A stretch of DNA of 64,000 bases from Gammaproteobacteria bacterium (GCA_045107005.1 JBGCFP010000032.1:15525-79524); one strand, 5' to 3'. Positions 22,619-56,537 are shown, numbered from the stretch's first letter. A program made the numbers and translations. The notes: a model not told the origin generated them from the sequence alone.

Positions 22619-22761
22619 GGGCTTCTCGAAAGAGCACCTGATGCGGTCAGGCCAAGCAGCGGTCACTGGATCGGACCGCCGGATTGACAGCCCTGTCGAT
22701 TGACCTGACCATGCACGCCTCGACGTGCGCGCGTGCGACGCGGCTTAGCAGCGGTAAAGCG

Positions 22762-24321
22762 ATGACCAACAACACCCGATTCACCGTAACCACAGCATTG
22801 ATTGTTGCGCTTGGCGGGTTTTTGATGGGCTTCGATGCGTCGGTGATTTCTGGCGTTGTCGGGTTTATCGAGCTCGAATACGAGCTGACCAAGATTCAGC
22901 TGGGGTGGGCGGTCGCGTCGCTCACACTGACCGCCACGCTGGCCATGATGGTGGCGGGGCCTCTGAGCGATCGACTGGGGCGGCGTCCCGTTCTAAAGCT
23001 GGCGGCCGCGTTGTTCGCCGTGTCCGCCGTGGCGTCAGCCGTCGCGCCCAACTTTTTGACCCTCGTTATCGCCCGCATGCTGGGTGGTTTTGGCGTCGGG
23101 GCGGCGCTGATTATCGCGCCCATGTACATCGCGGAAATTGCCCCGGCGTCCATGCGTGGGCGCTTGGTATCCATTAACCAGCTCAACATCGTTGTTGGTA
23201 TATCCGCAGCGTTCTTCAGCAACTATCTGATCCTGTCGCTGGGTCAGTCCGAGTTAGCCTGGGCGCAATCGCTGGGCCTTGGTGAGTGGGGCTGGCGCTG
23301 GATGCTCGGGATTGAAGCGTTGCCGGCCGTGCTCTATTTCTTCGCGTTGTTTGCTGTGCCAGAAAGCCCGCGATGGCTGTTGCTGCGAGGACGCGATGCG
23401 CAGGCGCAGAAAGTGATGGAGCGCGTTTGCGGTGAGCAGCAGGCACACGATGTGCTCAACGAAGTGCGCGCGACGCTCACCGCCGATGCTGCCCCGCGAG
23501 GTGGCCTCAAAGATCTGTTCAAACCGGCCATGCGATGGGTGCTCACCATTGGTCTGACGGTCGCGATCTTGCAGCAGATAACCGGTATCAATTCCGTGTT
23601 CTTTTACGCGCCCATGATTTTCGAACAGTCCGGTATCGGCACTGATGCCTCGTTCATGCAGGCCGTTCTGGTTGGATTGGTCAATCTTGTGTTCACGGTC
23701 ATTGCCATGCTGCTGATCGACAGGATCGGTCGCCGCCCGCTGCTGGGTGTCGGCCTGGCCGGCATCACCATTTGCATGTTCACCCTGGCTTATGGGTTCG
23801 GTTCGGCGACGTACACGTTGACGGCGGACGCCGCCGCCGCATTGCCCGATGCGATCGACCGGCAAGACATCGCCAGCGTGGTGGGCACAACCTTTGAAAG
23901 CGATGTGGCGTTTCGCGCAAATGTTTCGCAGGCACTTGGCCCGGACGTGTATCGCGCGTTCGAATCGGCACTGGTCAGTGCTTCCATTGCCATGAATCCT
24001 GCGCTGATTTTGCTCGGCATTCTCGGCTTTGTTGCCAGCTTTGCGGTGTCGCTCGGCCCGGTGATGTGGGTGTTGTTCTCTGAGCTGTTTCCCAACGCAT
24101 TGCGTGGCATTGCCATTTCGTTTGTCGGACTGGTCAATTCCGGAGTCAGTTTTGGCGTACAGCTGGTGTTCCCGTGGGAGCTTGTAAACCTGGGTAACGC
24201 GCTGACTTTCGGCATTTACGGAGTCTTCGCCCTGGTCGGGCTGGTGGTGGTCATGAAGATCATGCCGGAGACCAAGAATCAGTCGCTCGAAGCGCTCGAA
24301 GCCCGCTTGGTCCGGCGCTAG
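22762..24321 (+). CDS. Sugar porter family MFS transporter
   Basis: GGFLMGFD, DRLGRR, MYIAEIAP, PESPRW, QQITGIN, PETK; ATG 22762 (track 22684). Confidence 0.94.
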   Translation: MTNNTRFTVTTALIVALGGFLMGFDASVISGVVGFIELEYELTKIQLGWAVASLTLTATLAMMVAGPLSDRLGRRPVLKLAAALFAVSAVASAVAPNFLTLVIARMLGGFGVGAALIIAPMYIAEIAPASMRGRLVSINQLNIVVGISAAFFSNYLILSLGQSELAWAQSLGLGEWGWRWMLGIEALPAVLYFFALFAVPESPRWLLLRGRDAQAQKVMERVCGEQQAHDVLNEVRATLTADAAPRGGLKDLFKPAMRWVLTIGLTVAILQQITGINSVFFYAPMIFEQSGIGTDASFMQAVLVGLVNLVFTVIAMLLIDRIGRRPLLGVGLAGITICMFTLAYGFGSATYTLTADAAAALPDAIDRQDIASVVGTTFESDVAFRANVSQALGPDVYRAFESALVSASIAMNPALILLGILGFVASFAVSLGPVMWVLFSELFPNALRGIAISFVGLVNSGVSFGVQLVFPWELVNLGNALTFGIYGVFALVGLVVVMKIMPETKNQSLEALEARLVRR

Positions 24322-24354
24322 TTTTCGAGCAGTTTGCCGTTATGAGGAATTAAC

Positions 24355-24846
24355 GTGGATCTATTCGCCGCACCGACATCCGGGTTTGAAATTGGCCGCG
24401 TGATTCAGCTTGCGATCACACCGGTGTTTACCGTGGCGGCGATCGCCGGGATCCTGGGCGTGTTGTCCACGCGTCTGGCGCGCATTATTGACCGTGCACG
24501 AGATATCGAAAAACGCATTCCGCGTGCACGCGGCGAAGAACAAAGCCAACTGTTGTGCGTCGAGGCCAAGTCAAACTGGTACCGCATTCGCGTGATCAAT
24601 CGCGCGATTCAGTTGAGCGTCAGTGGCGCTTTGATGATTTGCCTGGTGATCGTGTCGCTGTTTGTCGGGCAGTTCACGACGATCAACTTATCGGCATTCA
24701 TCGCGGCGTTGTTCATCCTTGCGATGCTGCTGGTGATCGGTGGACTGATTTGTCTGCTGATTGAGATTGCCCACGCGACCCGGCGCATGCAGCTGGGGAT
24801 CGAATCTGACATGGACGTGAACGCCAACGAGCCACCAGCCTCATGA
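24355..24846 (+). CDS. DUF2721-like membrane protein
   Basis: IQLAITPVF...RLARIIDRAR pattern with three hydrophobic segments. Confidence 0.75.
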   Translation: MDLFAAPTSGFEIGRVIQLAITPVFTVAAIAGILGVLSTRLARIIDRARDIEKRIPRARGEEQSQLLCVEAKSNWYRIRVINRAIQLSVSGALMICLVIVSLFVGQFTTINLSAFIAALFILAMLLVIGGLICLLIEIAHATRRMQLGIESDMDVNANEPPAS

Positions 24847-24857
24847 GCCGCGACGCG

Positions 24858-25811
24858 TCAGGACGTCAGGACACCACTACCCAACTCACCCATAACCAGC
24901 TTGGGTAAACGATCCACGGTAAACAAACCCCAGTGCTTTTCGGGTTCCAGCGGATCGGGCGAGCCTTTCCACGGTTCGTCGAATGCCTCGAACAAAAACG
25001 TCAGCAAGCGTTCCTGTCTGCTCCACGTCACCAGTTCGCAGCAGTACCGTGCCTGGAACGCCTGTGACGCGTTATCGGGCTGTATGCCGCGGCCGTTGGA
25101 ATTGGTGGTCCAGCCCGCTTCGGTAATCACCACAGGCATGTCGGGATAGCGATCGGTCACCCGCCGTACGTTCTCGCGCGTGTAGTCCATGGCCGTTTCG
25201 ACCGTGTGGTATTCCCAGACCGGATACGTGTGTAGTGAGATAAAGTCGAGGACTTCTACCAGTGGCTCAAGCTTGTCTGTCCACGGCACGTAGTTCTCGC
25301 AAAACGTGACCGGCTGCTTGATGTGACTCTTGATGCGTAAAACGTGCACGATCAGTCGCTCGACCGGCACCAGGTGATCGGTCCAGTCCACGGTCGCTTC
25401 ATTACCCACCGACACGGCGAAGGCTGCCTCGGGGTACTGACTGGCCAGAGCGATCAGTTTGTCGATTTCGGCATCGTTTGCGCTTCTATTCTCGGCCAGC
25501 TGCTCGTCCGAAAATTCGGCGCCCCACGGGCAGTTGGGGTTTGACACCTCGGCGCGCATGTCGGCGCCCAGCATGACGCGGAAATTCAAACTCTCGCGAT
25601 CAATGACCTCCAGCACCCGCTCGGCGTGCGTGCTGCAGTCGTAAAGTCGCAAATACTTCCACTGACCCTCGAGCAGCCGCAGATCTTCGAGAATCTCGTC
25701 GTAAGATGGATACGTGCCGTCGATTGGAGACTGGCCGTCGCGGTAGCCGGAATAGCAAATAGCGTTGCCAAAGTCGACGTCCAGACGGCCGGTAAGTGCT
25801 GCGTCAGACAT
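24858..25811 (-). CDS. Glycoside hydrolase family 17 (beta-1,3-glucan active)
   Basis: AICYSGYR, LRLY, SVGNE, ITEAGW, FEAFDEPWK, EKHWG. Confidence 0.88.
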   Translation of the reverse strand: MSDAALTGRLDVDFGNAICYSGYRDGQSPIDGTYPSYDEILEDLRLLEGQWKYLRLYDCSTHAERVLEVIDRESLNFRVMLGADMRAEVSNPNCPWGAEFSDEQLAENRSANDAEIDKLIALASQYPEAAFAVSVGNEATVDWTDHLVPVERLIVHVLRIKSHIKQPVTFCENYVPWTDKLEPLVEVLDFISLHTYPVWEYHTVETAMDYTRENVRRVTDRYPDMPVVITEAGWTTNSNGRGIQPDNASQAFQARYCCELVTWSRQERLLTFLFEAFDEPWKGSPDPLEPEKHWGLFTVDRLPKLVMGELGSGVLTS

Positions 25812-26757
25812 ACTTCAATTGCCCTTTGGTATCCCATAAACCCCAGTACGCGCCGACGTCGCCCTCATCACCCACTTTCCACGATTCGTCGAACGACGAA
25901 AAATAGAACACGTCGACCTCGTCTTGCTCCGCCCATTGATACGTCTTGATGAAATATTCCAGCGCGTTTTCAAACGAGGGCACAGCGGCGCCAAACGGCG
26001 TACCGACCGTCGGCCAACCGGTTTCCGAAACGATCACCGGCTTGCCGTTCGCGACGGACTGCGCGCGGCGATACATGTCCTTCATGTAAAGCACAGCGAA
26101 CTCAGCCGGGCAGCTCTCCCAAAACGGGTAGCAGTTAACGAGCAGGACGTCGCAGGCATCGGCAACGCGCGGGTGGTTTTCAAACAGAAAATACGCGTCG
26201 ACGTAGCTGACCGGCACGCCGGGTACCGCTGCCTTGGCGCGTTCGATGTAGTCGATCAGCTGGTCTTCGGTCAAATCTTCGCGCAGCAGGATTTCGTTGC
26301 CGACGGCGAGAATGTCGGCGTGGCCAGCCCTGGCAATTTCGATACCGGCAGCCAGTTCCATTTCGTTCTTTTCCAGGTCATCGGTGAGCCCGACACCAAC
26401 CATGGTCTTCAGGCCCATCTCGTGGGCTATCTGCGGTGCCAGTTCGTTGCCCTCGACAGTGGAGAACGTGCGCACCCAGTTAGTGAAAGGCGCGATGATG
26501 CTCATGCGCTCACGAATCTGCTCGGCGCTAATTTGAATGCCCGGCTCCTGTCCGTCCATATACGGGCTGAAGGAAATTCCGTGGACTTTTTTTTCCAGAA
26601 TCCCCCGCAGCAGCTGGATCTTGTCGGCGGTCGACACGCCGCTGAAGTCGGTGCCCAGTAGCTGCGGATGCCCGGGCGTCTGATAGCCCGAGCGCCGCAG
26701 CGCAACGGCGCCGCTGGACCGTGTAAAGGTAGAAGGGTCTGGATTGTGTTCAGTCAT
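25804..26757 (-). CDS. Glycoside hydrolase family 17 (beta-1,3-glucan active)
   Basis: FSPY, WVRTF, AVGNE, VSETGWP, FSSFDESWK, YWGLWD; 8-bp overlap with the paralogue. Confidence 0.88.
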   Translation of the reverse strand: MTEHNPDPSTFTRSSGAVALRRSGYQTPGHPQLLGTDFSGVSTADKIQLLRGILEKKVHGISFSPYMDGQEPGIQISAEQIRERMSIIAPFTNWVRTFSTVEGNELAPQIAHEMGLKTMVGVGLTDDLEKNEMELAAGIEIARAGHADILAVGNEILLREDLTEDQLIDYIERAKAAVPGVPVSYVDAYFLFENHPRVADACDVLLVNCYPFWESCPAEFAVLYMKDMYRRAQSVANGKPVIVSETGWPTVGTPFGAAVPSFENALEYFIKTYQWAEQDEVDVFYFSSFDESWKVGDEGDVGAYWGLWDTKGQLKYV

Positions 26758-45647: not shown

Positions 45648-46337
45648 TTGGAGCTAAACGCCGATTTTTCCCAGCGTGTCGTCGTGCACGCGGCGCAGTT
45701 GCCCTGGCAATCATCACCCATGGCGGGCGTGATGCGTCGCATGCTCGATCGCGTGGGCGATGAAGTCGCGCGCGCTACCAGTGTCGTGCGCTACGCACCG
45801 GGCAGCCGATTTTCGCCGCACGTACACACCGGTGGCGAAGAATTTTTCGTGCTCGACGGCGTGTTTCAGGACGAGCACGGCGACTACCCCGCAGGCACCT
45901 ACGTACGCAACCCGCCGCAATCGAGTCACACCCCTGGCGCTGCCGACGGTTGCGTTATCTTCGTGAAGCTCTGGCAGTTTGATTCGGCCGATCGCACTAC
46001 TGTGGTGAAAGCCATGGACCCTGCGCAGGCGGTGGCAAAAGCGTCGCGACCTGGCGTCAGCGTGTTGCCACTGCATCACGATTCACGCGAAGAGGTGCGC
46101 ATGGAAGTCTGGGGTGCCAACGCGCAGGTGGCATGGCACGCGGAAGGTGGCGCCGAACTGTTTGTGCTTGACGGCGAGTGCCGCGAAGGGAACGACACGC
46201 TTTCACGCCACTCATGGCTGCGCGTTCCGCCAGGAGGTGAGCTGCGTGCCACGGCCGGGTCGTCGGGTGCGCGTGTCTGGACAAAAATCGGCGGTTTGCG
46301 CAACGTCGACGTACCGCCGCAGCCCACGACACCTTAG
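45648..46337 (+). CDS. ChrR-like double cupin
   Basis: ARATSVVRY, HVHTGGEE, YVRNP, FVKLWQF. Confidence 0.87.
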   Translation: MELNADFSQRVVVHAAQLPWQSSPMAGVMRRMLDRVGDEVARATSVVRYAPGSRFSPHVHTGGEEFFVLDGVFQDEHGDYPAGTYVRNPPQSSHTPGAADGCVIFVKLWQFDSADRTTVVKAMDPAQAVAKASRPGVSVLPLHHDSREEVRMEVWGANAQVAWHAEGGAELFVLDGECREGNDTLSRHSWLRVPPGGELRATAGSSGARVWTKIGGLRNVDVPPQPTTP

Positions 46338-46459
46338 TCCAAACTGGTTTTGCGCTGGTCGGGCGGCGGTTGATGCCAGCGCACGGTACGCTCGCGATGT
46401 TCGCAAGCTCTAATCCTGATAGCCTGTCTTTAGACACTGCGATACAGGAGCGCCAGAGC

Positions 46460-47317
46460 GTGATTGAGCTCGTATTGAGACCAAAAATTCGGGATCTGGG
46501 CGAGTTTGAGGTGCGACGCGTCTTGCCGGACCGAGCACGGCGGACGGTTGGTCCGTTCGTCTTCTTTGATCACATGGGTCCGGCGCAATTTCCGCCCGGT
46601 TCAGGTATCGCAGTACGGCCACACCCGCACATTGGCCTGGCGACCATTACCTATTTGTTCGACGGCCAGATTCTGCATCGTGACAGTTTGGGCGAGGTGC
46701 AGACGATCTACCCGGGCGCCGTGAATCTGATGACAGCCGGGCGAGGCATCGTGCACTCGGAACGGGCTGGCGATGATCTTGATGAGGTCTCGACACTGCA
46801 CGGCATTCAGTCATGGATGGCGTTGCCCGACCAGGCGCAGGAAATCGCCCCGTCGTTTGATCACTATCCCGCTGGCATGCTGCCGCAACTGCAAATCGAT
46901 GAAGCGGTGGTACGCGTCATCATGGGCACCGCATTTGGTCAGACCTCGCCCGTGACACAATACAGCGCGACGCTCTATCTCGAATGCCAGTTGCCCGCCG
47001 GCAATACGCTTGATCTGCCAATCGACTATGCCGAGTTAGCGGTTTATGTGGTCAGCGGTGAAATCAAAATCGCGAATGAAACCTATGGCGAAGGTGCCAT
47101 GGCCGTGGCCAGCGAGCGGGCACACATCACGCTATCGGCAACCCGCGACGCGCGGGTCATGGTGATTGGTGGTGATAACCCGGGTCCGCGGCATCTGTGG
47201 TGGAATTTTGTCTCCAATTCCAAAGCGCGTATCGAGCAGGCAAAAGCGGATTGGCGCAACGGCGATTTCGATATGGTCCCGGGCGACGACGAGTTTATTC
47301 CGCTCCCGGAGGGCTAA
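46460..47317 (+). CDS. Pirin-family protein
   Basis: GPFVFFDH, HPHIG, HRDSLG, MTAGRGIVHSE, WWNFVS; caggag RBS before GTG 46460. Confidence 0.92.
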   Translation: MIELVLRPKIRDLGEFEVRRVLPDRARRTVGPFVFFDHMGPAQFPPGSGIAVRPHPHIGLATITYLFDGQILHRDSLGEVQTIYPGAVNLMTAGRGIVHSERAGDDLDEVSTLHGIQSWMALPDQAQEIAPSFDHYPAGMLPQLQIDEAVVRVIMGTAFGQTSPVTQYSATLYLECQLPAGNTLDLPIDYAELAVYVVSGEIKIANETYGEGAMAVASERAHITLSATRDARVMVIGGDNPGPRHLWWNFVSNSKARIEQAKADWRNGDFDMVPGDDEFIPLPEG

Positions 47318-47372: not shown

Positions 47373-49625
47373 TCAGAACGTCTTGTTAAACGTCAGCGAC
47401 CACGTCATGGGATCCTGTACGTACAAGAAACCCGCCAGCAGCGCTACCACCTGATCCCGGTCCGTGCAGTTTTTGCACGATGCCGTCAGTGACCAGTTTT
47501 GCGCTGTGTTCGTCAACGCCACGCCGGCGTTCAAGACCGTGTACGGGTCGATGAGCGCAATATCCTGACCGGCCGTGCTGACGTTGTGATCACCGTAACG
47601 TACTGCTGTGGCACGTGGCGTAATGATGGTGTCCGAACCAATGTCGAAATCAAACCAGCCGCCGACCGAGATCTGGGTGTCGGGTGCACGCGTCGGGTCA
47701 GCAATGTCTCCGTTAGTATCGACGATACTCTGCGCGCAGCTCGTGCCCAGGGTTCGGCATTCGGTTTGCTGGGCGACAATGCTTGGATCCAGATTGGTGT
47801 ATTCACTGTCGAGAAATCCAATGTTGGCGAACACCGTCAAGTTGTCTGTCGGTAGCGCGAGAATTTCAAACTCGGCTCCGGCGACTTCCAGATCGGCGGA
47901 GTTTTGCGTGATAAACGTAATCGAACCGTTGTCCGGGTCAGTGAACGCTGAGGGCAGCTGAAAATCCGAGACGTCGGTGAAAAACACGTTGGCGTTGAAG
48001 CGCAAGCTGTTGTCCAGAAATTCACTGCGCAAACCGCCCTCGTAGTTCCAGACTCTCTCGGCCGAGAAGGGCTGCAGCGTGGAGGTGACAGTGCCGCGCG
48101 CGTTCCAGCCGCCGGACTTGAAGCCGCGGGTGGCGGAGGCGTAAGCCATGATGTCGTCGGTAAACTGATACTCAAACGCGATGCGCGGCGTCAGAATTGA
48201 TTCCGTCTGCACCAGTGGGATGCCCGCCGCAACGAGGTCTGCGCTGTTGATGACGGCGCCTGCGGCGGGGTTGCCGTTATCGCGCAAGCCGATGTCCTTT
48301 TCCTCGTCGGTGTAGCGCAAGCCCAGCGTCAGGGTTGCCTGTTCGTTGAAGTGCCAGTCAGCCTGCGCGTACAGCGCCCACGAATCTACGGTGTTGTCGA
48401 GAATCCGATCGTATTGAATCAGCGGCAGACCGACCGGTGGTGGTGCCAGCCCGATGGCGCCCAGGTTGAAGATCTGAGCCAGATCGGTTTCGTTGTCTTC
48501 GGTGAAGTAGAACACGCCCGCGACGTAATCGAGCTGGTCGTCGAACAGGGTGCCCGTCAGCTTGGCTTCCAAAGAGAACTGATCGTGCTCCCCGGCGTTG
48601 GCGATGGTAAATCCGCCAGAGTTAAACGCGCCGTCGAAAAAATCGAGCAGGAAATCCTGATCCAGTGCGAGGTAGCTCGCCATGACGGTGAGCTCTGCGT
48701 TGTTCAGGTCGAACGTCAGGTCGGTGGTCAGGTGCGCAGAGTCCGTTTCATTACCCAGTGGAAAGCTCTGCTTATCACCAACGATCTGCCCCGAAAGCGG
48801 GCTGCCTTCCTGCACCAGGCCGGTATTCGAAATACGACCGTTCCCTTCGATCGAGTTGAAGATGTTGGCGTGGTCGGAGCGCACAACCGTGGCCGAGCCG
48901 TCCCAGGTGACGGTTGGCGAAATGTCCCACTGCACGTGTGCGCGGACACCGAAGTTGTCTTCCCGGTTCAGGTCATTTTCGCCTGTCGTTGGGTTGTCGA
49001 CGAACCCGTTGTCTTCCACGTAGTAGGCGGAGACTTTGGTGCGGAACGTGTCAGCAATCGGATAGTCGATGCTGCCGCGAATCTGGGTGCGGCCAAAACG
49101 CCCCGCGCCGACTTCCAGATAGCCGCCGAATTCCGGTGCCGGATCGTTCAGGATCATGCGGACGGCCCCACCGGTTGTGTTACGGCCAAACAAGGTGCCT
49201 TGTGGTCCCCGCAGCACTTCGACACGGTTGATGTCGAACAGGGCGTAGTTGTTCGCGTTCTGGCGCTGGATGAAATAGTCGCCGACGTAAGTGCCAACGG
49301 GCGGATCAAACGTCGCGATACTCTCGGTGTTGTTCAGTCCGCGAATGGCGTAAGTATTCGCCGTGCCCAAGCCGGTGTTGTTGTGCGCGACGAAGTTCGG
49401 CACGATCTTGGCGATGTCGAGTGCTTCGGTGACGCCGGCTTTTTGCAGCGTGTCGGCGGAGAACGCCGAAACCGCGACCGGAATGTTCTGCACGCCTTCT
49501 TCGCGTCGCTGAGCTGTCACCACGACTTCTTCAAGCTGCTGTGCAAGCACCTCGGGAACCGCGGCCAACACACCTAATGTGACGATGCCCAAGACGACCT
49601 GTGTCGATTTGGCACTACTTCCCAT
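47373..49625 (-). CDS. TonB-dependent receptor
   Basis: Signal peptide, LEEVVVTAQRRE TonB box, VEVLRGPQGTLFGRN, GFKSGG, C-terminal F. Confidence 0.94.
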   Translation of the reverse strand: MGSSAKSTQVVLGIVTLGVLAAVPEVLAQQLEEVVVTAQRREEGVQNIPVAVSAFSADTLQKAGVTEALDIAKIVPNFVAHNNTGLGTANTYAIRGLNNTESIATFDPPVGTYVGDYFIQRQNANNYALFDINRVEVLRGPQGTLFGRNTTGGAVRMILNDPAPEFGGYLEVGAGRFGRTQIRGSIDYPIADTFRTKVSAYYVEDNGFVDNPTTGENDLNREDNFGVRAHVQWDISPTVTWDGSATVVRSDHANIFNSIEGNGRISNTGLVQEGSPLSGQIVGDKQSFPLGNETDSAHLTTDLTFDLNNAELTVMASYLALDQDFLLDFFDGAFNSGGFTIANAGEHDQFSLEAKLTGTLFDDQLDYVAGVFYFTEDNETDLAQIFNLGAIGLAPPPVGLPLIQYDRILDNTVDSWALYAQADWHFNEQATLTLGLRYTDEEKDIGLRDNGNPAAGAVINSADLVAAGIPLVQTESILTPRIAFEYQFTDDIMAYASATRGFKSGGWNARGTVTSTLQPFSAERVWNYEGGLRSEFLDNSLRFNANVFFTDVSDFQLPSAFTDPDNGSITFITQNSADLEVAGAEFEILALPTDNLTVFANIGFLDSEYTNLDPSIVAQQTECRTLGTSCAQSIVDTNGDIADPTRAPDTQISVGGWFDFDIGSDTIITPRATAVRYGDHNVSTAGQDIALIDPYTVLNAGVALTNTAQNWSLTASCKNCTDRDQVVALLAGFLYVQDPMTWSLTFNKTF

Positions 49626-49661
49626 GGCAGCTCCTCTGGCCTTTTACGGCGGCAATCGAAA

Positions 49662-49683
49662 AATGTTATAAGAACATAACATT
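49662..49683. promoter_or_regulatory. Palindromic operator AATGTTAT-N6-ATAACATT, copy 1
   Basis: aatgttat aagaac ataacatt between divergent receptor and NTF2 genes; same arms at 55586. Confidence 0.8.
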
Positions 49684-49733
49684 AGGCTAATTGATCTGTA
49701 AACTGACTCTATGGTGAGATTCTGAACAAACTG

Positions 49734-50216
49734 ATGTCCTGTGTGCCGCGTTACTTACTGGCGCTGGCGCTGTTCGCTTTGGGCACTTTGCCCGTTCAGG
49801 CGGACGAACAAACGCGAGCCGTTTTCCAAGAAATTGGCGGGCGCTGGATCGACCGATACCTGGCGGAAGACCTGGACGGTCTAATGGATTTGTACACCGA
49901 AGACGCCATGGTCATGCTGCACGGCAAGCCGATGATGCGTGGCAAACCCGCCATTCGTGCTTTTTTCGCCGACAGTCTGGGTAAGGCCAGTGTGACGTTC
50001 GAGATTGACGTCGAGCGCGCCGAAATTCACGGCGCCATGGCCTATCTGATCAGCAAGTACTGGATGTCGATTCGGCCCCATGGTAGCGATAACACCGTCA
50101 CCGATGTTGGACGCTCGCTGTTGATTTACAAGAAAGGGTCAGACGGCGAATGGAGAATTCACGCCGACATCGATCAGGCGACTCCCGATGTCACGTGGCC
50201 GCCACCGGAGTCTTGA
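49734..50216 (+). CDS. Exported NTF2/SnoaL-like (DUF4440-type) protein
   Basis: Signal peptide; DLYTEDA...RGKPAIRAFF...YKKGSDGEWRI. Confidence 0.8.
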   Translation: MSCVPRYLLALALFALGTLPVQADEQTRAVFQEIGGRWIDRYLAEDLDGLMDLYTEDAMVMLHGKPMMRGKPAIRAFFADSLGKASVTFEIDVERAEIHGAMAYLISKYWMSIRPHGSDNTVTDVGRSLLIYKKGSDGEWRIHADIDQATPDVTWPPPES

Positions 50217-50219
50217 GTT

Positions 50220-51053
50220 TCAGTGCATTTCCTCGCCGCCGCTGACGTTAATGGCGTCGCCATTGATGTAGCACGCTTCGTCGGAACACAAAAAGGCAAC
50301 GGCATTGGCGGTGTCGCTTACCAGGCCAACGCGACCTAACGGGTTGCGCGCGCGAATATCCGCGCGGTATTCCTCGACCGTCTTGCCGCGAAACTTTGCG
50401 AAGTATTCATTTTGCTCGGCGCCCAGGCCCGTCGTGACGTGGTTCGGACAGACCGCGTTGACGGTAATATTGTGCGCGCCCAATTCCAGCGCGCTAGTGC
50501 GCGTCAGACCGATCATGCCGTGTTTCGACGCGATGTAAGCGGCCAGATGGGGGAAGCCGGTCTTGGCACCCTGGCTGGCAATATTGACAACGCGACCGCC
50601 ATCGCCCTGTTCGATCATGACTTTGGCCGCATGCTTGGTGGTCAGAAACGACCCCATCAAATTCACGTCGAGGACGGCTTGCCACTCGGAGCGCGACACG
50701 TCCACCAGAGGCTTGAGCACGTAGCCGATGCCCGCGTTGTTAATTAGCATATCGATGCGACCGAGTTGATCGCGTGTGATCGCCATCATCTGGGCGACTT
50801 GATCTTCATCCCGCACGTCGCAGGCCACCGGGATCGCGTTCACGCCGGTGTCGCGCGATATGGCGTCGGCGATGCTCGTGATCTCGCGCGTCGTGCCCAC
50901 CTTGTTTTCCGGCATGTGCTCGGCCGCTTGCCCGATGTCGCTGATCACGACGTCGCAGCCGCTCTGGGCCAGTCGTCGCGCGATGCCTTGACCCAAACCC
51001 TGCTTGCGCCCCGCGCCGGTAATGATCGCGACTTTCCCTTTTAAACTGCTCAT
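50220..51053 (-). CDS. Short-chain dehydrogenase/reductase
   Basis: TGAG...GLG, NNAG, NIAS, YIASK, VNAVCP. Confidence 0.93.
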   Translation of the reverse strand: MSSLKGKVAIITGAGRKQGLGQGIARRLAQSGCDVVISDIGQAAEHMPENKVGTTREITSIADAISRDTGVNAIPVACDVRDEDQVAQMMAITRDQLGRIDMLINNAGIGYVLKPLVDVSRSEWQAVLDVNLMGSFLTTKHAAKVMIEQGDGGRVVNIASQGAKTGFPHLAAYIASKHGMIGLTRTSALELGAHNITVNAVCPNHVTTGLGAEQNEYFAKFRGKTVEEYRADIRARNPLGRVGLVSDTANAVAFLCSDEACYINGDAINVSGGEEMH

Positions 51054-51063
51054 GCTGATCGCC

Positions 51064-51375
51064 TCACTCGATGTCGCTGATCAGAATAAACTGCGGCTGG
51101 TCGGCATAGCCCTGGAACGCCTTGACCACCGCCTGCATTTCATCCGTCTGGGCGTCGGCGCCAAGTTCGGGCACGCTGCTCACTTCGAGCCATTCGGCGT
51201 ATTGATAGGGTGGCGCGTCCTCGGAGCCCATGAGACCGTCAGCGCGATATACGTCGAAGCGCGACACGGCGTTCAGGCCCCGAGCGGTCGGCAGATCCTT
51301 CTCGCGTGCCCAGGTTTCGTACTCGGCAATGTCAACGCCGTCTTTAAGATTGAACAGGACCAGTATTTTTTGCAT
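51064..51375 (-). CDS. HapK/RedY-like (EthD-like dimeric barrel) protein
   Basis: VLFNLKDGVD..EYE.WA...DLP, PYQY.E pattern, 103 aa. Confidence 0.7.
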   Translation of the reverse strand: MQKILVLFNLKDGVDIAEYETWAREKDLPTARGLNAVSRFDVYRADGLMGSEDAPPYQYAEWLEVSSVPELGADAQTDEMQAVVKAFQGYADQPQFILISDIE

Positions 51376-51387
51376 TCGCTTGCTCCA

Positions 51388-53364
51388 TTAAAGTGTGTTG
51401 CCGACCGAATGGCCCATGGCCGTGGCCGCCAGTAACGTGTCGGGGGTGTGGCAATCGCCGACGCGCTTAACCGTTGCACCCGCTGCGAGCAGCGGCTCGG
51501 CGAGCTGATCGTCCGGTCGACGCGGCGTTGAGTAAGTGACCAGCGCCACGTCATCAATGGGCGTCTCGTTGCCGGTGTACAGATTGCGCGCCATCGCGAC
51601 GCCGTCTTCAAGTCCGCCGATGTCGCCAAACTCACAGAACGGCAGAATCTCGATGCCGCGCTCGTTCAGTCGCCGATAAATGCCCTGGCGCATGACCAGC
51701 GCTTCTTGCTGGGCGACGGTTTCGCGCGGCGTCATCAGCACGACGCGATCAAACAGAGCGCTCAGGCGCTCGGCCGCCATGTAAGTGCCGTGCGTGTGAT
51801 CCTGGTCAAACAGAACGGCCGTGCCACCCTGAGGTTCGTTGTAGTCGAGCAGTTCGCGCATCAGCGAACGCAAATCCATGATGAAACCCTCTTCGCGAAG
51901 CGCATCAGGGAGCTGGCGCGGCCACATCATGCTGGCGCCGGTGGCGAGCACCACGGTCTCGGGGGTTAGGTCCAGCACGTCGTGTTCGCTCACTTGGCCA
52001 CGTACCTGCAGTTCCAGCCCGGCGCGCTGCGCGGCTTGCAGCTGGTAGTCGTAAACGCTGCTCAGGTTCTCGCCGCCGGGCAGCAGCGCTTGCAGTGACG
52101 TTTTTCCGCCGACTTGCTCGCTGCGAGCGAGCAGCGTGACCTCGTGCCCGCGGGCGGCCGCAATCCAGGCGGCTTCCATGCCGGCGACGCCGCTGCCGAC
52201 AACAACGACGCGCTTGGTTTGTTTGGTTGGTGCCGGCCACCAGTCGGCCTCAATGGTCATCCCGACGCGCGGGTTGTTGTCGCAGGCAATCGGCAAGCCG
52301 TCACGAATGATGGTGGCCCAGCAGGTGTTGCACGACACGCAGTAGCGAATCTCCGCGGCGCGACCGGCGCGCGCTTTGTTGGGCCACGCCGGGTCGGTGA
52401 CCAGTGGGCGACCCAGACCAACGAGTTCGGCATCGCCCTCTTCAATCAGCCGCTCTGCCTCAGCCGGGTCGGTGATCAGACCGAGCGCCATCAGCGGAAC
52501 GTCGCCGGCGCTTTGGCGCATGGCGCGGGTAATGTCGGCGAAAGGCACGCGGGGGCCGTGCATGTCCGGCACGTGACGATCAAGCCATGGCGAGTGTGAG
52601 CCCTGCGCGTGACAGAAATAGGAAAACAGTTCGGGCTTCGCCAGCTCGGCCGTAAAACGCTGCGCTTCCTCTATATCAATGCTGCCCGGTACGCTGTCGA
52701 CGCCCGGCAACTTCAATCCGATAATGAAGTTCTCGCCACAGCGCGCACGAATGCGCGTGCCCAGTTCGGTGATGACGCGCGTGCGCCGCGCGACGTCGCC
52801 GCCCCAGTCGTCGTCGCGCAGATTGCACCACGGTGACAGGAACTGGTGAAACAGATGGCCATGACCGGCCGACAGTTCCACGCCGCTGAAGCCGGCGTCT
52901 TGCAGGGCATCAGCCGCTTTCGCAAAACGCTCGATCAGATCGTCGATGGCTTCGCTGGCAAGAGCGCGCGGGACGGTCCAGCTCAGATCGTCGGGCAATA
53001 CCGACGGAGCGATCGCGTAAGGATGCTTGCCGGCTTCATGTCGGCCGCGACCGGAATCCTGGAGCTGGCCGAGGATTCGACAGCCCGCGTCCTCGACCAC
53101 GCTCGCCCATCGCTTGAGGCCGCTGCTGTCCTTGAATACGTTCACTTTGTACGGCTGGTGATGCCAGGGCTGCACCGCAAGCGGCTCCGTGACGATCAGG
53201 CCAGCGCCGCCTTCGGCGCGGTTGCGATGGTAGTTGATCAGCGACTCGGAAACCGCCTGATTGCGTCCCATCTTGGTGGTCATCGACGCGTGGGCCACTC
53301 GGTTGCGCACGCGCACACCGTGCAGATCCAGCGGCGCAAACAGCGCCTCGCAGGGCGTACTCAC
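51388..53364 (-). CDS. NADH:flavin oxidoreductase (OYE barrel + 4Fe-4S + FAD domain; FadH/BaiCD architecture)
   Basis: VRNRV, RAEGGAGLI, GHGHLFHQFLSP..N.R.D.WGG, CVSCNTC, GSGVAG; GTG 53364 overlaps upstream stop. Confidence 0.9.
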   Translation of the reverse strand: MSTPCEALFAPLDLHGVRVRNRVAHASMTTKMGRNQAVSESLINYHRNRAEGGAGLIVTEPLAVQPWHHQPYKVNVFKDSSGLKRWASVVEDAGCRILGQLQDSGRGRHEAGKHPYAIAPSVLPDDLSWTVPRALASEAIDDLIERFAKAADALQDAGFSGVELSAGHGHLFHQFLSPWCNLRDDDWGGDVARRTRVITELGTRIRARCGENFIIGLKLPGVDSVPGSIDIEEAQRFTAELAKPELFSYFCHAQGSHSPWLDRHVPDMHGPRVPFADITRAMRQSAGDVPLMALGLITDPAEAERLIEEGDAELVGLGRPLVTDPAWPNKARAGRAAEIRYCVSCNTCWATIIRDGLPIACDNNPRVGMTIEADWWPAPTKQTKRVVVVGSGVAGMEAAWIAAARGHEVTLLARSEQVGGKTSLQALLPGGENLSSVYDYQLQAAQRAGLELQVRGQVSEHDVLDLTPETVVLATGASMMWPRQLPDALREEGFIMDLRSLMRELLDYNEPQGGTAVLFDQDHTHGTYMAAERLSALFDRVVLMTPRETVAQQEALVMRQGIYRRLNERGIEILPFCEFGDIGGLEDGVAMARNLYTGNETPIDDVALVTYSTPRRPDDQLAEPLLAAGATVKRVGDCHTPDTLLAATAMGHSVGNTL

Positions 53365-54014
53365 GCGGGTTTGACGACACCAAAGTAGGTGGCCATCAAT
53401 ACGCAAATATAGATGCCGATGACCCACCAGTAGACCGGCGCAATCGCTTTGCTGTACAACGCGTCGCGCTCGGGCGTCGCGCCGTTGGTCATGATGTCAG
53501 TGAACGCGATGACGGCGGGTTTGAACGTGATGTCCAGCGCGATGCCGCACACGAGCACCAGCGCGATCGCAACGATTTTCATGCTCAACCACAACGGCGC
53601 CGTGCCCCACAGCGTGAACGCCGCGTAGCCAAGCGCGAGCACCAGAATAATGTGCAGCGCGAAATTCACCTTGTGCGACAACGCCTCGACGGCGGATTGC
53701 GGTTTGAGAAAGCCTGCCCACATGATGGCGGCCCACACCAACGCGGCAGCCCAAATGCCGAGCAGCGCGCCGCTGCCCAGTGACACCATGCCCAGGTTGT
53801 TTGCGAGCGTGAAGCCGCTCGGCAATATCAGGATCACGGCTGTACGGGGCAGTCGATCGAGCACCATGCCCAACTGCATCAGCGACCCGCGCGTCTCGAC
53901 GCTCAGCTCGCCGCGCTCCGACATTTTTGCCGCGAGAAAAACGCCCAGGTCTGTGCCCAGCCAGAACACCAGCAACAGAATGTGAAAAAGAACCATGTAA
54001 GAATGCGTAGCCAT
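53361..54014 (-). CDS. Integral membrane hypothetical protein (~6 TM)
   Basis: Multiple hydrophobic segments, ggag RBS, coupled to the OYE gene. Confidence 0.75.
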   Translation of the reverse strand: MATHSYMVLFHILLLVFWLGTDLGVFLAAKMSERGELSVETRGSLMQLGMVLDRLPRTAVILILPSGFTLANNLGMVSLGSGALLGIWAAALVWAAIMWAGFLKPQSAVEALSHKVNFALHIILVLALGYAAFTLWGTAPLWLSMKIVAIALVLVCGIALDITFKPAVIAFTDIMTNGATPERDALYSKAIAPVYWWVIGIYICVLMATYFGVVKPA

Positions 54015-54053
54015 GCAAAAGCTCCGGAAATGAAAGGGGAAGCGGCTCGTCGA

Positions 54054-54332
54054 CTATTTGGTGATGTTCTGGCCTGCTTCGAGTACGCGCCGAATCAGTT
54101 TATCTCGTTGCGCGTCCCAGTCCGCTTCAAGTTCCGGTGTTGGCTCAAAGTTGTCAATGTCTTCCGTGGTCAGAATGTTGCGCTCGGTCAGTAAAGCTTC
54201 AATGGTCAGCAGGCGTTCCTTAACGGCCCAGTGTTCCGCCATCAGACGTGCCATTCGGGCGAGCAAGCGATCGAGTTCCGGATCGGAGTAGAACCCTTTG
54301 CGACCGCCTTTGACTTCTCTGCTCAGCGCCAT
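54054..54332 (-). CDS. Small helical hypothetical protein
   Basis: 92-aa ORF 3 bp downstream of the methyltransferase, same strand. Confidence 0.72.
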   Translation of the reverse strand: MALSREVKGGRKGFYSDPELDRLLARMARLMAEHWAVKERLLTIEALLTERNILTTEDIDNFEPTPELEADWDAQRDKLIRRVLEAGQNITK

Positions 54333-54335
54333 GTC

Positions 54336-55532
54336 TTAACCCTTTGCCTTGCGCGCGCCGAAGCCGTACCACTGGATGCTGTCGGCCAGCCGCCCGGTGT
54401 TTTCATCAAACTCGACCGGACCGGACACGGCCTGCACGAAGGTCTCTTCGTCGATGTAGGTATAGCGCGGCATGACGGCTTCAAAAAAGGTGTCAGCGTC
54501 GAAGCCCGCGTCCAGGCACAGTGCGCGGTAACTCTGGTCACGAAACCCTTTATAGAAAGGTTCGTTGTTGTAGTAGCAGTCCCAGTCCAGATAAAACGCG
54601 TCGTACGGGCCGAGGTTTTCGTTCGGCGGCAATTCCATGTTGAGCATGACGCCGCCTGGCTTTAGGATGCGGCGCGCTTCGCGCATGTATGCGTCGATGG
54701 CGTCCTTGGGCAGCTCGTGCAGGAACATCGAGCTGAACACGATATCGGCGCTGTTGTCGTCGAAGTTCAGCATCTCGGCTTTCGCCTGATGGAAGTGCAC
54801 GGTGACGCCCATCGCCTGTGCTCGCGCATGAGCGTAACGTACGCAGGACGCGGCCACGTCGACGCCGTGCACCTCGGCGTCGGGATAGGTTTGCTTCCAC
54901 GGCAGTGTGTTGTGACCGATGGAGCAACCGACGTCGACAATGACTTGTGGCTTGTCGTTCGGGTTGCGCGCCTGGTAATACTTGGCCATGGACCAGCCGA
55001 TGTCGTTCAGGCGACGACCCATCATGCCAAACGCGAACACGTTCAAGCCCTGATCGTACACAGCACCGGCGCTCAGCGAGTCGTCGCTGCCGCCGTAATT
55101 GCCCGGCATCAAATGCACGTCAACCGCGTTGACGTAGGCGGGAATATCCAACTCCGGATCCAGTGACAGCGTGCCTTGGGCGCGTGACTGATCCGACGTC
55201 ATTTGTTCAAACTTGGCATCCAGCGTGTCGCCATGCTGCTCGATGTTGTCCATCACCGTGTCCCACACCAGTTCCTGGGTGGCACAGCGCAAACTGCTGT
55301 AGCGCTTGAAGGTGTCGCTGTCGCGGATGGCCCGATGCACAGCCCAACCATCTTTGGGCGTCGTGGCGTCGTCCTTGGTGAGTTCGGGTTCTATGTTCTG
55401 CTCGTAGTCGGTACGCATCTGCGTGGCCACGTCCGTTAGCACATAGGCACGCAGCCCCGATACAAAACGAGCCCGAGCCAGATCGTCGCGACTTTTTGGC
55501 AGGTCCATATCGTGATGCAAGCTTTTTTCCAT
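54336..55532 (-). CDS. Class I SAM-dependent methyltransferase-fold protein with long N-terminal extension
   Basis: VDVGCSIG motif I, HGVDV, DIVFSSMFLHE, ILKPGG; gagg RBS before ATG 55532. Confidence 0.87.
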   Translation of the reverse strand: MEKSLHHDMDLPKSRDDLARARFVSGLRAYVLTDVATQMRTDYEQNIEPELTKDDATTPKDGWAVHRAIRDSDTFKRYSSLRCATQELVWDTVMDNIEQHGDTLDAKFEQMTSDQSRAQGTLSLDPELDIPAYVNAVDVHLMPGNYGGSDDSLSAGAVYDQGLNVFAFGMMGRRLNDIGWSMAKYYQARNPNDKPQVIVDVGCSIGHNTLPWKQTYPDAEVHGVDVAASCVRYAHARAQAMGVTVHFHQAKAEMLNFDDNSADIVFSSMFLHELPKDAIDAYMREARRILKPGGVMLNMELPPNENLGPYDAFYLDWDCYYNNEPFYKGFRDQSYRALCLDAGFDADTFFEAVMPRYTYIDEETFVQAVSGPVEFDENTGRLADSIQWYGFGARKAKG

Positions 55533-55585
55533 GATCCTCACTCTTCAAATGCTGCCGGCAGGGTGCACGCCGCGCTCTGTTCGTA

Positions 55586-55607
55586 AATGTTATAGCACTA
55601 TAACATT
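55586..55607. promoter_or_regulatory. Palindromic operator AATGTTAT-N6-ATAACATT, copy 2
   Basis: aatgttatag ca ctataacatt (10-bp perfect arms) about 55 bp upstream of the methyltransferase operon. Confidence 0.8.
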
Positions 55608-55826: not shown

Positions 55827-56537
55827 ATGCACGAGTCTGCCGAGCTTTTGGTCTATGACGAAGTCGGTCCGTGTCCGTATCTCGCGGGTCGAGAAGCGCG
55901 CATGCCTCTGCGCCAACCGGTCGCCAGGCTAACCGGCGAGCAGTTCGATCAGCGCCTCGCGGCGGGCGATCGGCGAACCGGTCCGTTCTTGTATCGCACC
56001 ACCTGTCCAAGCTGCCAGGCTTGCGTGCCCATGCGCGTGCCGGTAACAGATTTCCAGCCGAACCGTTCTCAGCGTCGCGCCTTGCGCCGTGGCGATCAGG
56101 AAATTGTCATACAGGTGCGCCGGCCCATCGCCGATGCGCGTCGCGCCGAACTCTACAATCGGCACAGTCATGAACGCGGGTTGGGCGTGGGGCAGTTGCC
56201 CGTATCCGTCGACGACTATCGAAAATTTCTGGTCAGTTCGTGTTGCGATACGGTCGAGTTGAGCTACTTGGTTGATGGAACGCTGGTCGCGGTGGCCATA
56301 GTGGATCGCGGTGCGGCCGCAATCTCGGCCGTGTACTGCTGCTTCGATCCGGACTACTCGAAATTCAGCTTGGGCGTGTATTCGATTTTGACCCAGATTC
56401 GTTTGGCGCAGCGATGGCGGATGGACTACGTGTATTTGGGGTTGTACATCGAGCAGTCGCCGCACATGAATTACAAGGCCCTCTATCGGCCGCATGAGTT
56501 TTTGATTGACGGGCAGTGGCGTCGTTCGGATGACTAA
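55827..56537 (+). CDS. bpt: Arginyl-tRNA-protein transferase family (bacterial Asp/Glu leucyltransferase)
   Basis: CPYL, GDRRTG..YR..C..C..C.P.R, SAVY..FDPD, SLG, YVYLG, MNYK..YRP. Confidence 0.87.
   Translation: MHESAELLVYDEVGPCPYLAGREARMPLRQPVARLTGEQFDQRLAAGDRRTGPFLYRTTCPSCQACVPMRVPVTDFQPNRSQRRALRRGDQEIVIQVRRPIADARRAELYNRHSHERGLGVGQLPVSVDDYRKFLVSSCCDTVELSYLVDGTLVAVAIVDRGAAAISAVYCCFDPDYSKFSLGVYSILTQIRLAQRWRMDYVYLGLYIEQSPHMNYKALYRPHEFLIDGQWRRSDD

Follow-up and report, generated by a model that had tools for sequence, protein, structure and literature searches.

A palindromic operator, a candidate GntR/UTRA regulator and an unnamed methyltransferase unit in a putative catabolic regulon of Gammaproteobacteria

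We analyzed a stretch of 64,000 nt, hereafter the window, from a Gammaproteobacteria bacterium (GCA_045107005.1, JBGCFP010000032.1:15525-79524). Positions 47,373 to 55,607 carry a TonB-dependent receptor gene, a gene for an exported NTF2-fold protein and a six-gene operon, with a copy of one palindrome in each of the two promoter regions. We consider it somewhat better than an even chance that this region is the uptake and early-steps part of a catabolic regulon repressed by a dedicated HutC-type GntR/UTRA regulator, P0004, which is encoded on another contig. All window coordinates are those of the whole stretch (Table 1); the source genome (5.05 Mb) is designated G000, the compared genomes bear other G numbers and their loci L numbers.

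Table 1. Positions of the genes and operator copies of the cluster in the window
Feature	Position	Strand	Family or basis
TonB-dependent outer-membrane receptor, 750 aa	47373-49625	-	Plug + TonB_dep_Rec_b-barrel
Operator copy 1, AATGTTATAAGAACATAACATT	49662-49683	.	Palindrome
Exported SnoaL/DUF4440 NTF2-fold protein, 160 aa	49734-50216	+	DUF4440, SnoaL_2, SgcJ/EcaC subfamily
Short-chain dehydrogenase/reductase (SDR), final operon gene	50220-51053	-	adh_short_C2, 2e-58
HapK/RedY-like (EthD-like) protein, 103 aa	51064-51375	-	PF11639, 45.6 bits
FadH-type Fe-S flavoenzyme (old yellow enzyme family, OYE)	51388-53427	-	Oxidored_FMN + Pyr_redox_2
Membrane protein, 217 aa, six predicted helices	53361-54014	-	Unnamed family
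92-aa helical protein, predicted methyltransferase partner	54054-54332	-	Synteny + complex model
Class I S-adenosylmethionine (SAM) methyltransferase, first operon gene	54336-55541	-	Methyltransf_25/11
Operator copy 2, AATGTTATAGCACTATAACATT	55586-55607	.	Palindrome

Gene content and conservation of the cluster

Open reading frames (ORFs) were present at the positions that the initial annotation had assigned to all eight genes, and their families were confirmed by Pfam and NCBIfam scans wherever these gave a match. Six of the genes form a minus-strand operon in the order methyltransferase, 92-aa protein, membrane protein, OYE, HapK-like protein and SDR, with successive gaps of 3 and 39 nt, an overlap, and gaps of 12 and 10 nt. 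The TonB receptor and NTF2-like genes constitute a divergent pair adjoining this operon. Alignments of orthologues place the start of the methyltransferase most likely at the ATG at 55532 and that of the OYE probably near 53364; with the latter start, the 67-nt overlap with the membrane protein gene would be an artefact of choosing the longest ORF. The receptor comprises a Plug domain (PF07715) followed by a barrel domain (PF00593), which matches the TonB-dependent receptor architecture, and it reached no specific NCBIfam subfamily. A Sec-type signal peptide, judged by eye on the translation, precedes the NTF2-like domain. Family scans of the window revealed no transcription factor gene within the cluster or adjoining it.

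To these genes we compared ten orthologous loci, in which the methyltransferase shows 57-81% identity (G001, G003, G004, G048, G024, G056, G014, G040, G276 and G280) and ORFs were called by a simple longest-ORF rule. The 92-aa gene lies directly downstream of the methyltransferase gene at all ten loci and is followed by the membrane protein gene at nine, the contig ending at the remaining one; a TonB receptor gene adjoins at seven, the other three ending too early to tell. An SDR orthologue of at least 50% identity is found at five loci, HapK at four, the OYE at three, all of one genus (and also in the paralogous cluster L030), and the NTF2-like gene at a single one (G276). The conserved core is made up of the methyltransferase, its 92-aa partner and the membrane protein, in most cases accompanied by the TonB receptor. 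The redox genes recur as interchangeable accessories, and the OYE, HapK and NTF2-like genes are all accessory, a distribution that does not bear out the proposal that the eight genes form one conserved unit.

In genus g21, a class III CoA-transferase gene sits between the receptor and methyltransferase genes, and genes for a glutathione transferase, an enoyl-CoA hydratase, a second methyltransferase, an SDR and an alcohol dehydrogenase lie downstream. The paralogous cluster L030, from a genome of another family (G021), contains HapK, OYE and methyltransferase genes, a partner-like ORF, and genes for a major facilitator superfamily (MFS) transporter, an SDR and a TonB receptor.

The shared operator and its candidate regulator

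The presence of the same palindrome in both promoter regions, as initially annotated, was confirmed: both copies have the form ATGTTAT-N6-ATAACAT and are identical at 19 of 23 positions. A search of the window for ATGTTATNNNNNNATAACAT with at most one mismatch returned two matches, against a mean of 0.00 in 100 shuffles. Exact TGTTAT and ATAACA half-sites at 6-nt spacing occur at four sites in the whole 5.05-Mb genome, two of them in the window and the others at C1:81245 and C159:39298. Each of the four falls between genes, at a distance of 36-83 nt from a start codon; copy 1 precedes the receptor start by 36 nt and the NTF2-like start by 50 nt, and copy 2 precedes the likely methyltransferase start by 53 nt. 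A minus-strand promoter-like site at 49702-49673 has its -10 hexamer within copy 1, in a scan that was overall at chance (3 sites, 2.0 expected).

The operator is kept in five genera of four families. It is found upstream of the orthologous cluster in G001, G003 and G004, at the position of copy 2 upstream of the methyltransferase, and in G014, G276, G280 and G177, between the methyltransferase and the receptor. Counts of sites exceeded those of a reversed-pattern control, with nine sites against two in G276 (up to two mismatches) and five against none in G177 (up to one mismatch). In G003, G004, G014, G276 and G280, sites with up to two mismatches are nearly always placed just upstream of genes. 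Weaker matches in the source genome at C7:25003, C59:26757, C203:17191 and C74:38963 were dropped from the regulon on account of their common flanking letters. They are near-identical sequences of about 24 nt that partly mimic the operator and are probably insertion-sequence terminal repeats; at a contig end, one of them borders directly on an rve integrase gene.

Membership of the regulon was assigned by site position alone. The C1 site sits between two divergent units, the first encoding a class III CoA-transferase, a glyoxalase-fold protein, an alpha/beta hydrolase, a CMD/AhpD-like protein and a FAD_binding_4 oxidase, and the second an HMG-CoA-lyase-like protein followed by an MFS transporter. 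The C159 site precedes the gene of a second TonB receptor of 819 aa. In relatives, the operator is linked to the same CoA-transferase/HMG-CoA-lyase-like divergon, accompanied by Amidohydro_2 and acyl-CoA ligase (AMP-ligase) genes, to LeuC/LeuD-like dehydratase subunits, CurA-like NADPH enone reductases and further glyoxalase-fold proteins, and to an F420_oxidored-type reductase, an aldehyde dehydrogenase, MFS transporters, a DUF1838 protein, more TonB receptors and lactonase-like genes.

Scoring against family models placed the HMG-CoA-lyase-like protein of G000 above its cutoff (NF004283, 286 bits, cutoff 246), and likewise the LeuC-like protein of G014 (NF009116, 698 bits, cutoff 531). The CurA-like protein of G000, the sole CurA-like copy scored and one whose gene is preceded by no more than a weak half-site, stayed below its cutoff (341 bits, cutoff 440), and the CoA-transferase of G000 fell below all equivalog cutoffs, by a wide margin for the mesaconate (208 of 700) and glutarate (264 of 750) models. 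In G014, a flavocytochrome-c/KstD-like enzyme is encoded beside the orthologous operon, where no operator site of its own was found. The earlier proposal of a role in import and transformation agrees with the finding of TonB receptors and catabolic enzymes under the same operator. A substrate with conjugated C=C bonds, also proposed, is plausible in view of the FadH-type ene-reductase, the CurA-like enone reductase and the flavocytochrome-c/KstD-like enzyme of G014.

The candidate regulator, P0004, is a GntR/UTRA protein encoded at G000:C1:68049-68819, 13 kb from the C1 site, by the last gene of an operon that also encodes a CurA-like reductase and a YCII protein. It consists of an N-terminal GntR winged helix (PF00392, 4.7e-20) and a C-terminal UTRA domain (PF07702, 2.4e-20). 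In G276, a HutC-type GntR/UTRA gene, to whose product P0004 is 65% identical, lies about 1.2 kb from a site; in G177, the regulator gene is likewise about 1.2 kb from a site and four sites fall within 25 kb. Regulator and sites are found on one contig in G000, G003, G004, G014 and G048.

At a threshold of E<=1e-30, an orthologue of the regulator was detected in all ten site-bearing genomes tested (G000, G001, G003, G004, G014, G276, G280, G177, G048 and G009). Six tested genomes have no such orthologue (G002, G024, G040, G056, G070 and G167) and no sites above the reversed-pattern control, and all of them except G002 still carry the orthologous methyltransferase-partner-membrane cluster. This co-occurrence is supportive, not statistical proof, and the P0004-type HutC regulator is, on these comparisons, the probable repressor of the operator regulon. 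The idea that one operator co-regulates the region gains from the same comparisons, the palindrome standing upstream of orthologous clusters in other genera and appearing to track one regulator.

HutC-subfamily GntR repressors, which include YvoA/NagR of Bacillus subtilis, DasR of Streptomyces, HutC and PhnF, likewise combine GntR and UTRA domains. Regulators of this type bind a palindromic operator near catabolic or uptake promoters and are released by a metabolite. P0004 can be aligned from end to end with YvoA (E 2e-26) and DasR (E 7e-20). Its best NCBIfam model is HutC, at 95.8 bits for a cutoff of 220, and its position below every equivalog cutoff makes it a separate, unnamed branch. The operator TGTTATA-N4-TATAACA and its targets are, moreover, unlike the histidine, phosphonate or amino-sugar regulons of HutC-type repressors.

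A set of genes resembling nonribosomal peptide synthetase (NRPS) genes is located at G000:C1:59236-65610 (L055:1237-7611), divergent from the operon that ends in P0004. It encodes an AMP-ligase, an acyl-CoA dehydrogenase, a HupE/UreJ_2 membrane protein and an 820-aa condensation-thioesterase protein.

Protein families of the core and of the redox accessories

The methyltransferase matches Methyltransf_25 (9.7e-23), and the residues D203, G205, G209 and D228 show little or no variation among 25 sequences. It has the features of class I enzymes, namely a Rossmann-like core, a glycine-rich motif I and an acidic position following strand 2, and is predicted to bind SAM. Residues H143, P146, G147, H275, E276, N325 and E327 are invariants specific to the family. 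In the AlphaFold2 (AF2) model (pLDDT 88), an N-terminal helical domain of about 190 residues precedes the standard core, and the solved folds closest to it are those of generic small-molecule O-, C- and N-methyltransferases. The family is strongly expanded: matches at E<=1e-20 number at least 30 in G015, at least 30 in G006, 22 in G060, 17 in G056 and 3 in G000. The paralogues are often in tandem, in operons with flavin monooxygenases, hydrolases, LysR regulators, TonB receptors and transporters, and many are followed by a partner-like small ORF.

The 92-aa protein has no Pfam or NCBIfam match. Prediction of its complex with the methyltransferase gave an ipSAE of 0.62 (0.58-0.64 in three runs), compared with 0.00 for the best of three controls; 58 of 80 solved complexes attained this level, as did 2 of 110 mismatched pairs, a calibration that is approximate since our own alignments were used. 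At least 94% of the contacts were common to the runs, and the pLDDT of the partner was at least 85. In the model, residues 1-43 of the partner pack on methyltransferase helices 18-30 and 78-101 and on residues 138-148 and 323-326, adjoining the family-invariant residues. Conserved positions at this predicted interface include G9, F14, D21, E33 and R40 of the partner, and R23, S82, P146 and G147 of the methyltransferase. The models thus support binding of the 92-aa partner by the methyltransferase.

The predicted pair recalls the Trm112 holoenzymes (Trm9, Trm11, Mtq2 and Bud23), in which a class I methyltransferase likewise works with a dedicated small protein, here of about 90 residues and with binding that is predicted. 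Unlike Trm112, the 92-aa partner is modeled as all-helical and seated against the N-terminal helical domain and along the edge of the predicted substrate pocket; its helical fold is presumably distinct from that of Trm112. The genomic contexts are also different, being catabolic operons rather than translation, and the nearest methyltransferase folds act on small molecules. In two paralogous modules, at L035:5003-6910 (G005) and L036:3654-5534 (G028), the membrane protein gene directly follows the methyltransferase gene with no 92-aa gene between them, so that the partner is not obligatory in all branches of the family.

The membrane protein also has no Pfam or NCBIfam match. Its AF2 model (pLDDT 93.4) shows six long helices, and residues H11, D22, R42, D53, R57 and K146 are invariant. 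A Foldseek search returned no match at E<=0.001, and the best VIA-align score (Z 12.5, with designed bundles and GPCRs) is within the noise of helical bundles, with no clear solved relative. Pfam searches at E<=10 across 44 members of the family gave nothing consistent, three of these members touching DUF2269 at E>=0.09. A look-alike cluster found by a language model is automatically named 'CopD domain-containing' (score 0.96), a generic name. A relationship to HemJ (UPF0093) found no support: a PF03653 search of the genome returned only the HemJ on C47, to which the membrane protein has no profile similarity (hhalign probability 0.2%). The family comprises 763 representatives at E<=0.001 in a library clustered at 50%, nearly all of about 220 aa, and is present, often in several copies, in 126 of 301 genomes sampled from the order. 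A related-locus search with the membrane protein yielded just two same-genus contigs of metagenome-assembled genomes. Two stretches of a 456-aa protein, P0154, match the family profile, consistent with a tandem duplication or fusion.

As regards the redox accessories, the OYE is composed of an Oxidored_FMN domain (residues 29-358), a 4Fe-4S motif (C363-x2-C366-x2-C369-x12-C382) and a Pyr_redox_2 domain from residue 406. Its best solved relative is the 2,4-dienoyl-CoA reductase FadH from E. coli (1ps9, E 9e-61), and the order of OYE, 4Fe-4S and FAD/NAD(P)H domains is that of the FadH family, which includes BaiCD/BaiH, histamine and trimethylamine dehydrogenases and BilR. The enzyme reaches no equivalog cutoff in this family (mycofactocin OYE_2, 413 of 793; BaiCD, 260 of 825), and its genome context contains no beta-oxidation or bile-acid genes. 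The HapK-like protein passes the cutoff of PF11639 (45.6 bits, cutoff 25) and falls below that of TIGR02118 (EthD); its sole sequence match in the PDB is the RedY-like protein 2jdj (E 3.4e-6).

Proposed pathway and alternative explanations

From the genes, the operator and its conservation, the regulator co-occurrence and the predicted methyltransferase-partner interface, all directly computed, we infer repression, the identity of the regulator, an order of steps, a role for the membrane protein and a class of substrate. A dimer of P0004 would bind TGTTATA-N4-TATAACA operators 36-83 nt upstream of start codons, until a pathway compound at the UTRA domain releases it. Four places in the genome would be controlled in this way: the receptor/NTF2 pair, the methyltransferase operon, the CoA-transferase/HMG-CoA-lyase divergon and the second TonB receptor. 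The ene-reductase, CoA-transferase, lyase and LeuCD-like content suggests that the substrate is an unsaturated, probably methyl-branched carboxylate or lactone, which would cross the outer membrane through the TonB receptors, MFS transporters also taking part. The methyltransferase-partner heterodimer would methylate it, possibly at or with the membrane protein, the FadH-type enzyme (elsewhere CurA-like reductases) would reduce C=C bonds, and the SDR would catalyze an oxidoreduction. In the lower pathway, CoA would be transferred to the carboxylate and a 3-hydroxy-3-alkyl acyl-CoA would be split by the HMG-CoA-lyase-like enzyme. Related intermediates would fall to LeuCD-like hydratases, lactonase-like hydrolases and glyoxalase-fold enzymes. 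Isoprenoid-derived acids, oxylipins and pigment ring fragments are all compatible with this scheme, and none is singled out.

The nearest characterized parallel for such a lower pathway is the PA0878-PA0886 cluster of Pseudomonas aeruginosa, which degrades branched short-chain dicarboxylates (itaconate) (PMC9875883). It likewise has a class III CoA-transferase followed by lyase cleavage of a hydroxy-branched acyl-CoA, a glyoxalase-fold protein (PA0880, there a 2-hydroxyparaconate lactonase) and an MmgE/PrpD protein (PMC9875883); an MmgE/PrpD gene lies beside the cluster in G014. The defining enzymes differ: the lyase is here HMG-CoA-lyase-like, and the TonB receptors, methyltransferase, OYE and SDR have no counterpart in the P. 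aeruginosa cluster (PMC9875883). The Ict/Ich/Ccl set itself was not recovered, with no Ich-type (MaoC-type) hydratase or methylsuccinyl-CoA dehydrogenase beside the sites scanned. Ccl and HMG-CoA-lyase belong to different fold families. In agreement with the initial annotation, no characterized pathway with this gene set was found in the literature searched, and the full texts searched contain no description of the gene set or the operator.

Several observations weigh against the proposed HutC-type catabolic regulon. At the orthologous locus of G048, no operator was found upstream of the methyltransferase, though this genome has the regulator and two perfect sites elsewhere. G011 encodes a 38%-identical homologue of the regulator and has no site at up to one mismatch. 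Upstream of the operon of P0004 itself in G000, only a weak half-site was seen by eye. The genomes compared for co-occurrence are kin, five of the six negatives belonging to one genus, so that the counts of ten genomes with and six without the regulator overstate their independence. The OYE, HapK and NTF2-like genes are not conserved with the core, and the pathway may therefore differ among genomes. Among the proposed steps, methylation is not a common feature of catabolic routes, and what it would achieve chemically is guesswork; the membrane protein may act as transporter, enzyme or anchor, all three being equally compatible with our analyses; and the substrate class is suggested by family names alone.

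Regulons in which a repressor governs TonB receptors together with catabolic enzymes are well known. The conserved core, by contrast with what databases name, is a three-gene unit with no entry of its own, which recurs in many uncultured Proteobacteria and reaches dozens of copies in some genomes. Its association with a defined operator, a candidate regulator and co-controlled downstream enzymes makes the question of its substrate testable: the downstream enzymes would limit the candidates to carboxylates or lactones that are unsaturated and probably branched, and the GntR/operator pair would provide a direct reporter for finding substrates. We further propose, tentatively and as a rather unlikely extension, that the methyltransferase, its helical partner and the six-helix membrane protein constitute an undescribed membrane-associated methyl-transfer unit serving breakdown and not biosynthesis. 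Speculatively, such a unit could mask a carboxylate as a methyl ester for moving or processing polycarboxylated or unsaturated dissolved organics, hydrolases later removing the ester by analogy with the BioC/BioH logic. If this were true, the presence of 30 or more family members in some genomes would be the sign of a general approach to breaking down these compounds.

The enzymes under the operator, the methyltransferase included, could also serve the detoxification of reactive electrophiles (enals, enones or quinones, such as oxylipins and polyunsaturated aldehydes from algae or plants) as a stress response, not growth. OYE, CurA-like, glyoxalase, AhpD-like and aldehyde dehydrogenase families are typical of electrophile regulons, and the operator-linked genes encode FadH/OYE, a CurA/leukotriene-B4-dehydrogenase-like enone reductase, several glyoxalase/VOC proteins, a CMD/AhpD-like protein, an aldehyde dehydrogenase and an F420_oxidored-type NADPH reductase, with an OsmC-like gene nearby in G276. 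We nevertheless judge this function unlikely, since the sharing of the operator by two to several TonB receptors and MFS importers points to deliberate uptake, and the CoA-transferase, the HMG-CoA-lyase-like protein (above its cutoff), the LeuCD-like proteins and the acyl-CoA ligase point to carbon assimilation. The importers and the CoA-transferase/lyase divergon also argue against a biosynthetic cluster, in which the methyltransferase, the reductases and HapK would tailor a secreted small molecule, such as a metallophore or signal, that the TonB receptor would retrieve. TonB receptors beside tailoring enzymes do resemble siderophore loci, NRPS-like condensation-thioesterase and AMP-ligase genes are divergent from the operon of the regulator on C1, and HapK/RedY homologues occur in the prodigiosin biosynthetic cluster (Pfam description). 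With no scaffold-forming enzyme in or beside the cluster at any of the ten loci, and with methyltransferase paralogues in operons with monooxygenases, hydrolases and LysR regulators, which are typical of breakdown, biosynthesis appears improbable.

That the module imports and reduces a linear tetrapyrrole or pigment product, its OYE acting like bilirubin reductase and HapK handling pyrroles, had been put forward initially and now seems quite improbable. The OYE does belong to the same FadH-type superfamily as BilR, the HapK/RedY membership is genuine, several ene-reductases suggest a conjugated substrate, and the LeuCD-like and CoA-transferase/lyase enzymes could in principle process substituted maleate-type ring fragments. 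The proposal was drawn from family names, and identification of the OYE as BilR was rejected: it scores 225 bits with the long model (NF045599, cutoff 750), under the mycofactocin-type OYE and BaiCD models, and 120.2 bits with the N-domain model (NF045592, cutoff 425). The OYE is, moreover, missing from seven and HapK from six of the ten orthologous clusters. PF11639 is a small family, met here outside any prodigiosin context, with no pyrrole-biosynthetic family among the neighbours in the window and the ten orthologous loci. Among the neighbours scanned, as the initial annotation had advised, there was no haem oxygenase and no bilin-binding or chlorophyll-catabolic family, and the membrane protein has no profile similarity to the HemJ of the genome. 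The co-regulated CoA-transferase III, HMG-CoA-lyase-like and LeuCD-like genes suggest branched acyl-CoA chemistry and nothing specific to pyrroles.

We also considered that the palindrome is a Zur box and the cluster a zinc-starvation response, which is very improbable. The half-sites ATGTTAT and ATAACAT resemble proteobacterial Zur boxes, and the genome has four Fur-family genes and no ZnuA match. TonB receptors are frequent members of Zur regulons; in Caulobacter, the receptors ZnuK, ZnuL and ZnuM are Zur-controlled, and the motif employed in that study is GTTA-N5-TAAC (PMC4176598). Half-site letters and TonB targets are thus similar, and the spacing differs: all four sites in G000 read GTTA-N8-TAAC, with a spacer three bases longer than that of the published motif (PMC4176598). 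Sites of canonical spacing (up to one mismatch to TGTTAT-N3-ATAACA) are found instead at zinc genes, at C138:17501 and C138:21723. This use of the usual spacing by zinc genes indicates that the longer palindrome belongs to another regulator, in line with the location of the N8 sites at catabolic and receptor genes and their tracking of the GntR regulator.

The two C138 sites (L057:5502 and L057:9724) flank an operon encoding ZrgA, DUF3299, ABC ATPase and FtsX proteins, a divergent CobW (COG0523) gene and a MerC-like gene, a set that looks like the zinc-starvation regulon of the organism. On the same contig (L057:3612-4707), a RES-domain protein and an Xre-like antitoxin form a toxin-antitoxin pair beside a TonB receptor gene.

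Around the cluster, a double ChrR-type cupin protein and a pirin are encoded directly beside the receptor gene (window 45648-47317), and an orthologue of this pirin (57% identity) is found 2 kb from a methyltransferase paralogue in G015 (L024:12681-13544). On the other side, an arginyl/leucyl-tRNA-protein transferase gene (ATE_N/ATE_C, window 55827-56537) is divergent from the methyltransferase operon, from which it is separated by a spacer of 285 nt with the operator on the methyltransferase side. Farther away, window positions 22684-26757 encode a sugar-type MFS transporter, a DUF2721 protein and, in two tandem genes, proteins with weak GH17 (beta-1,3-glucanase-like) matches.

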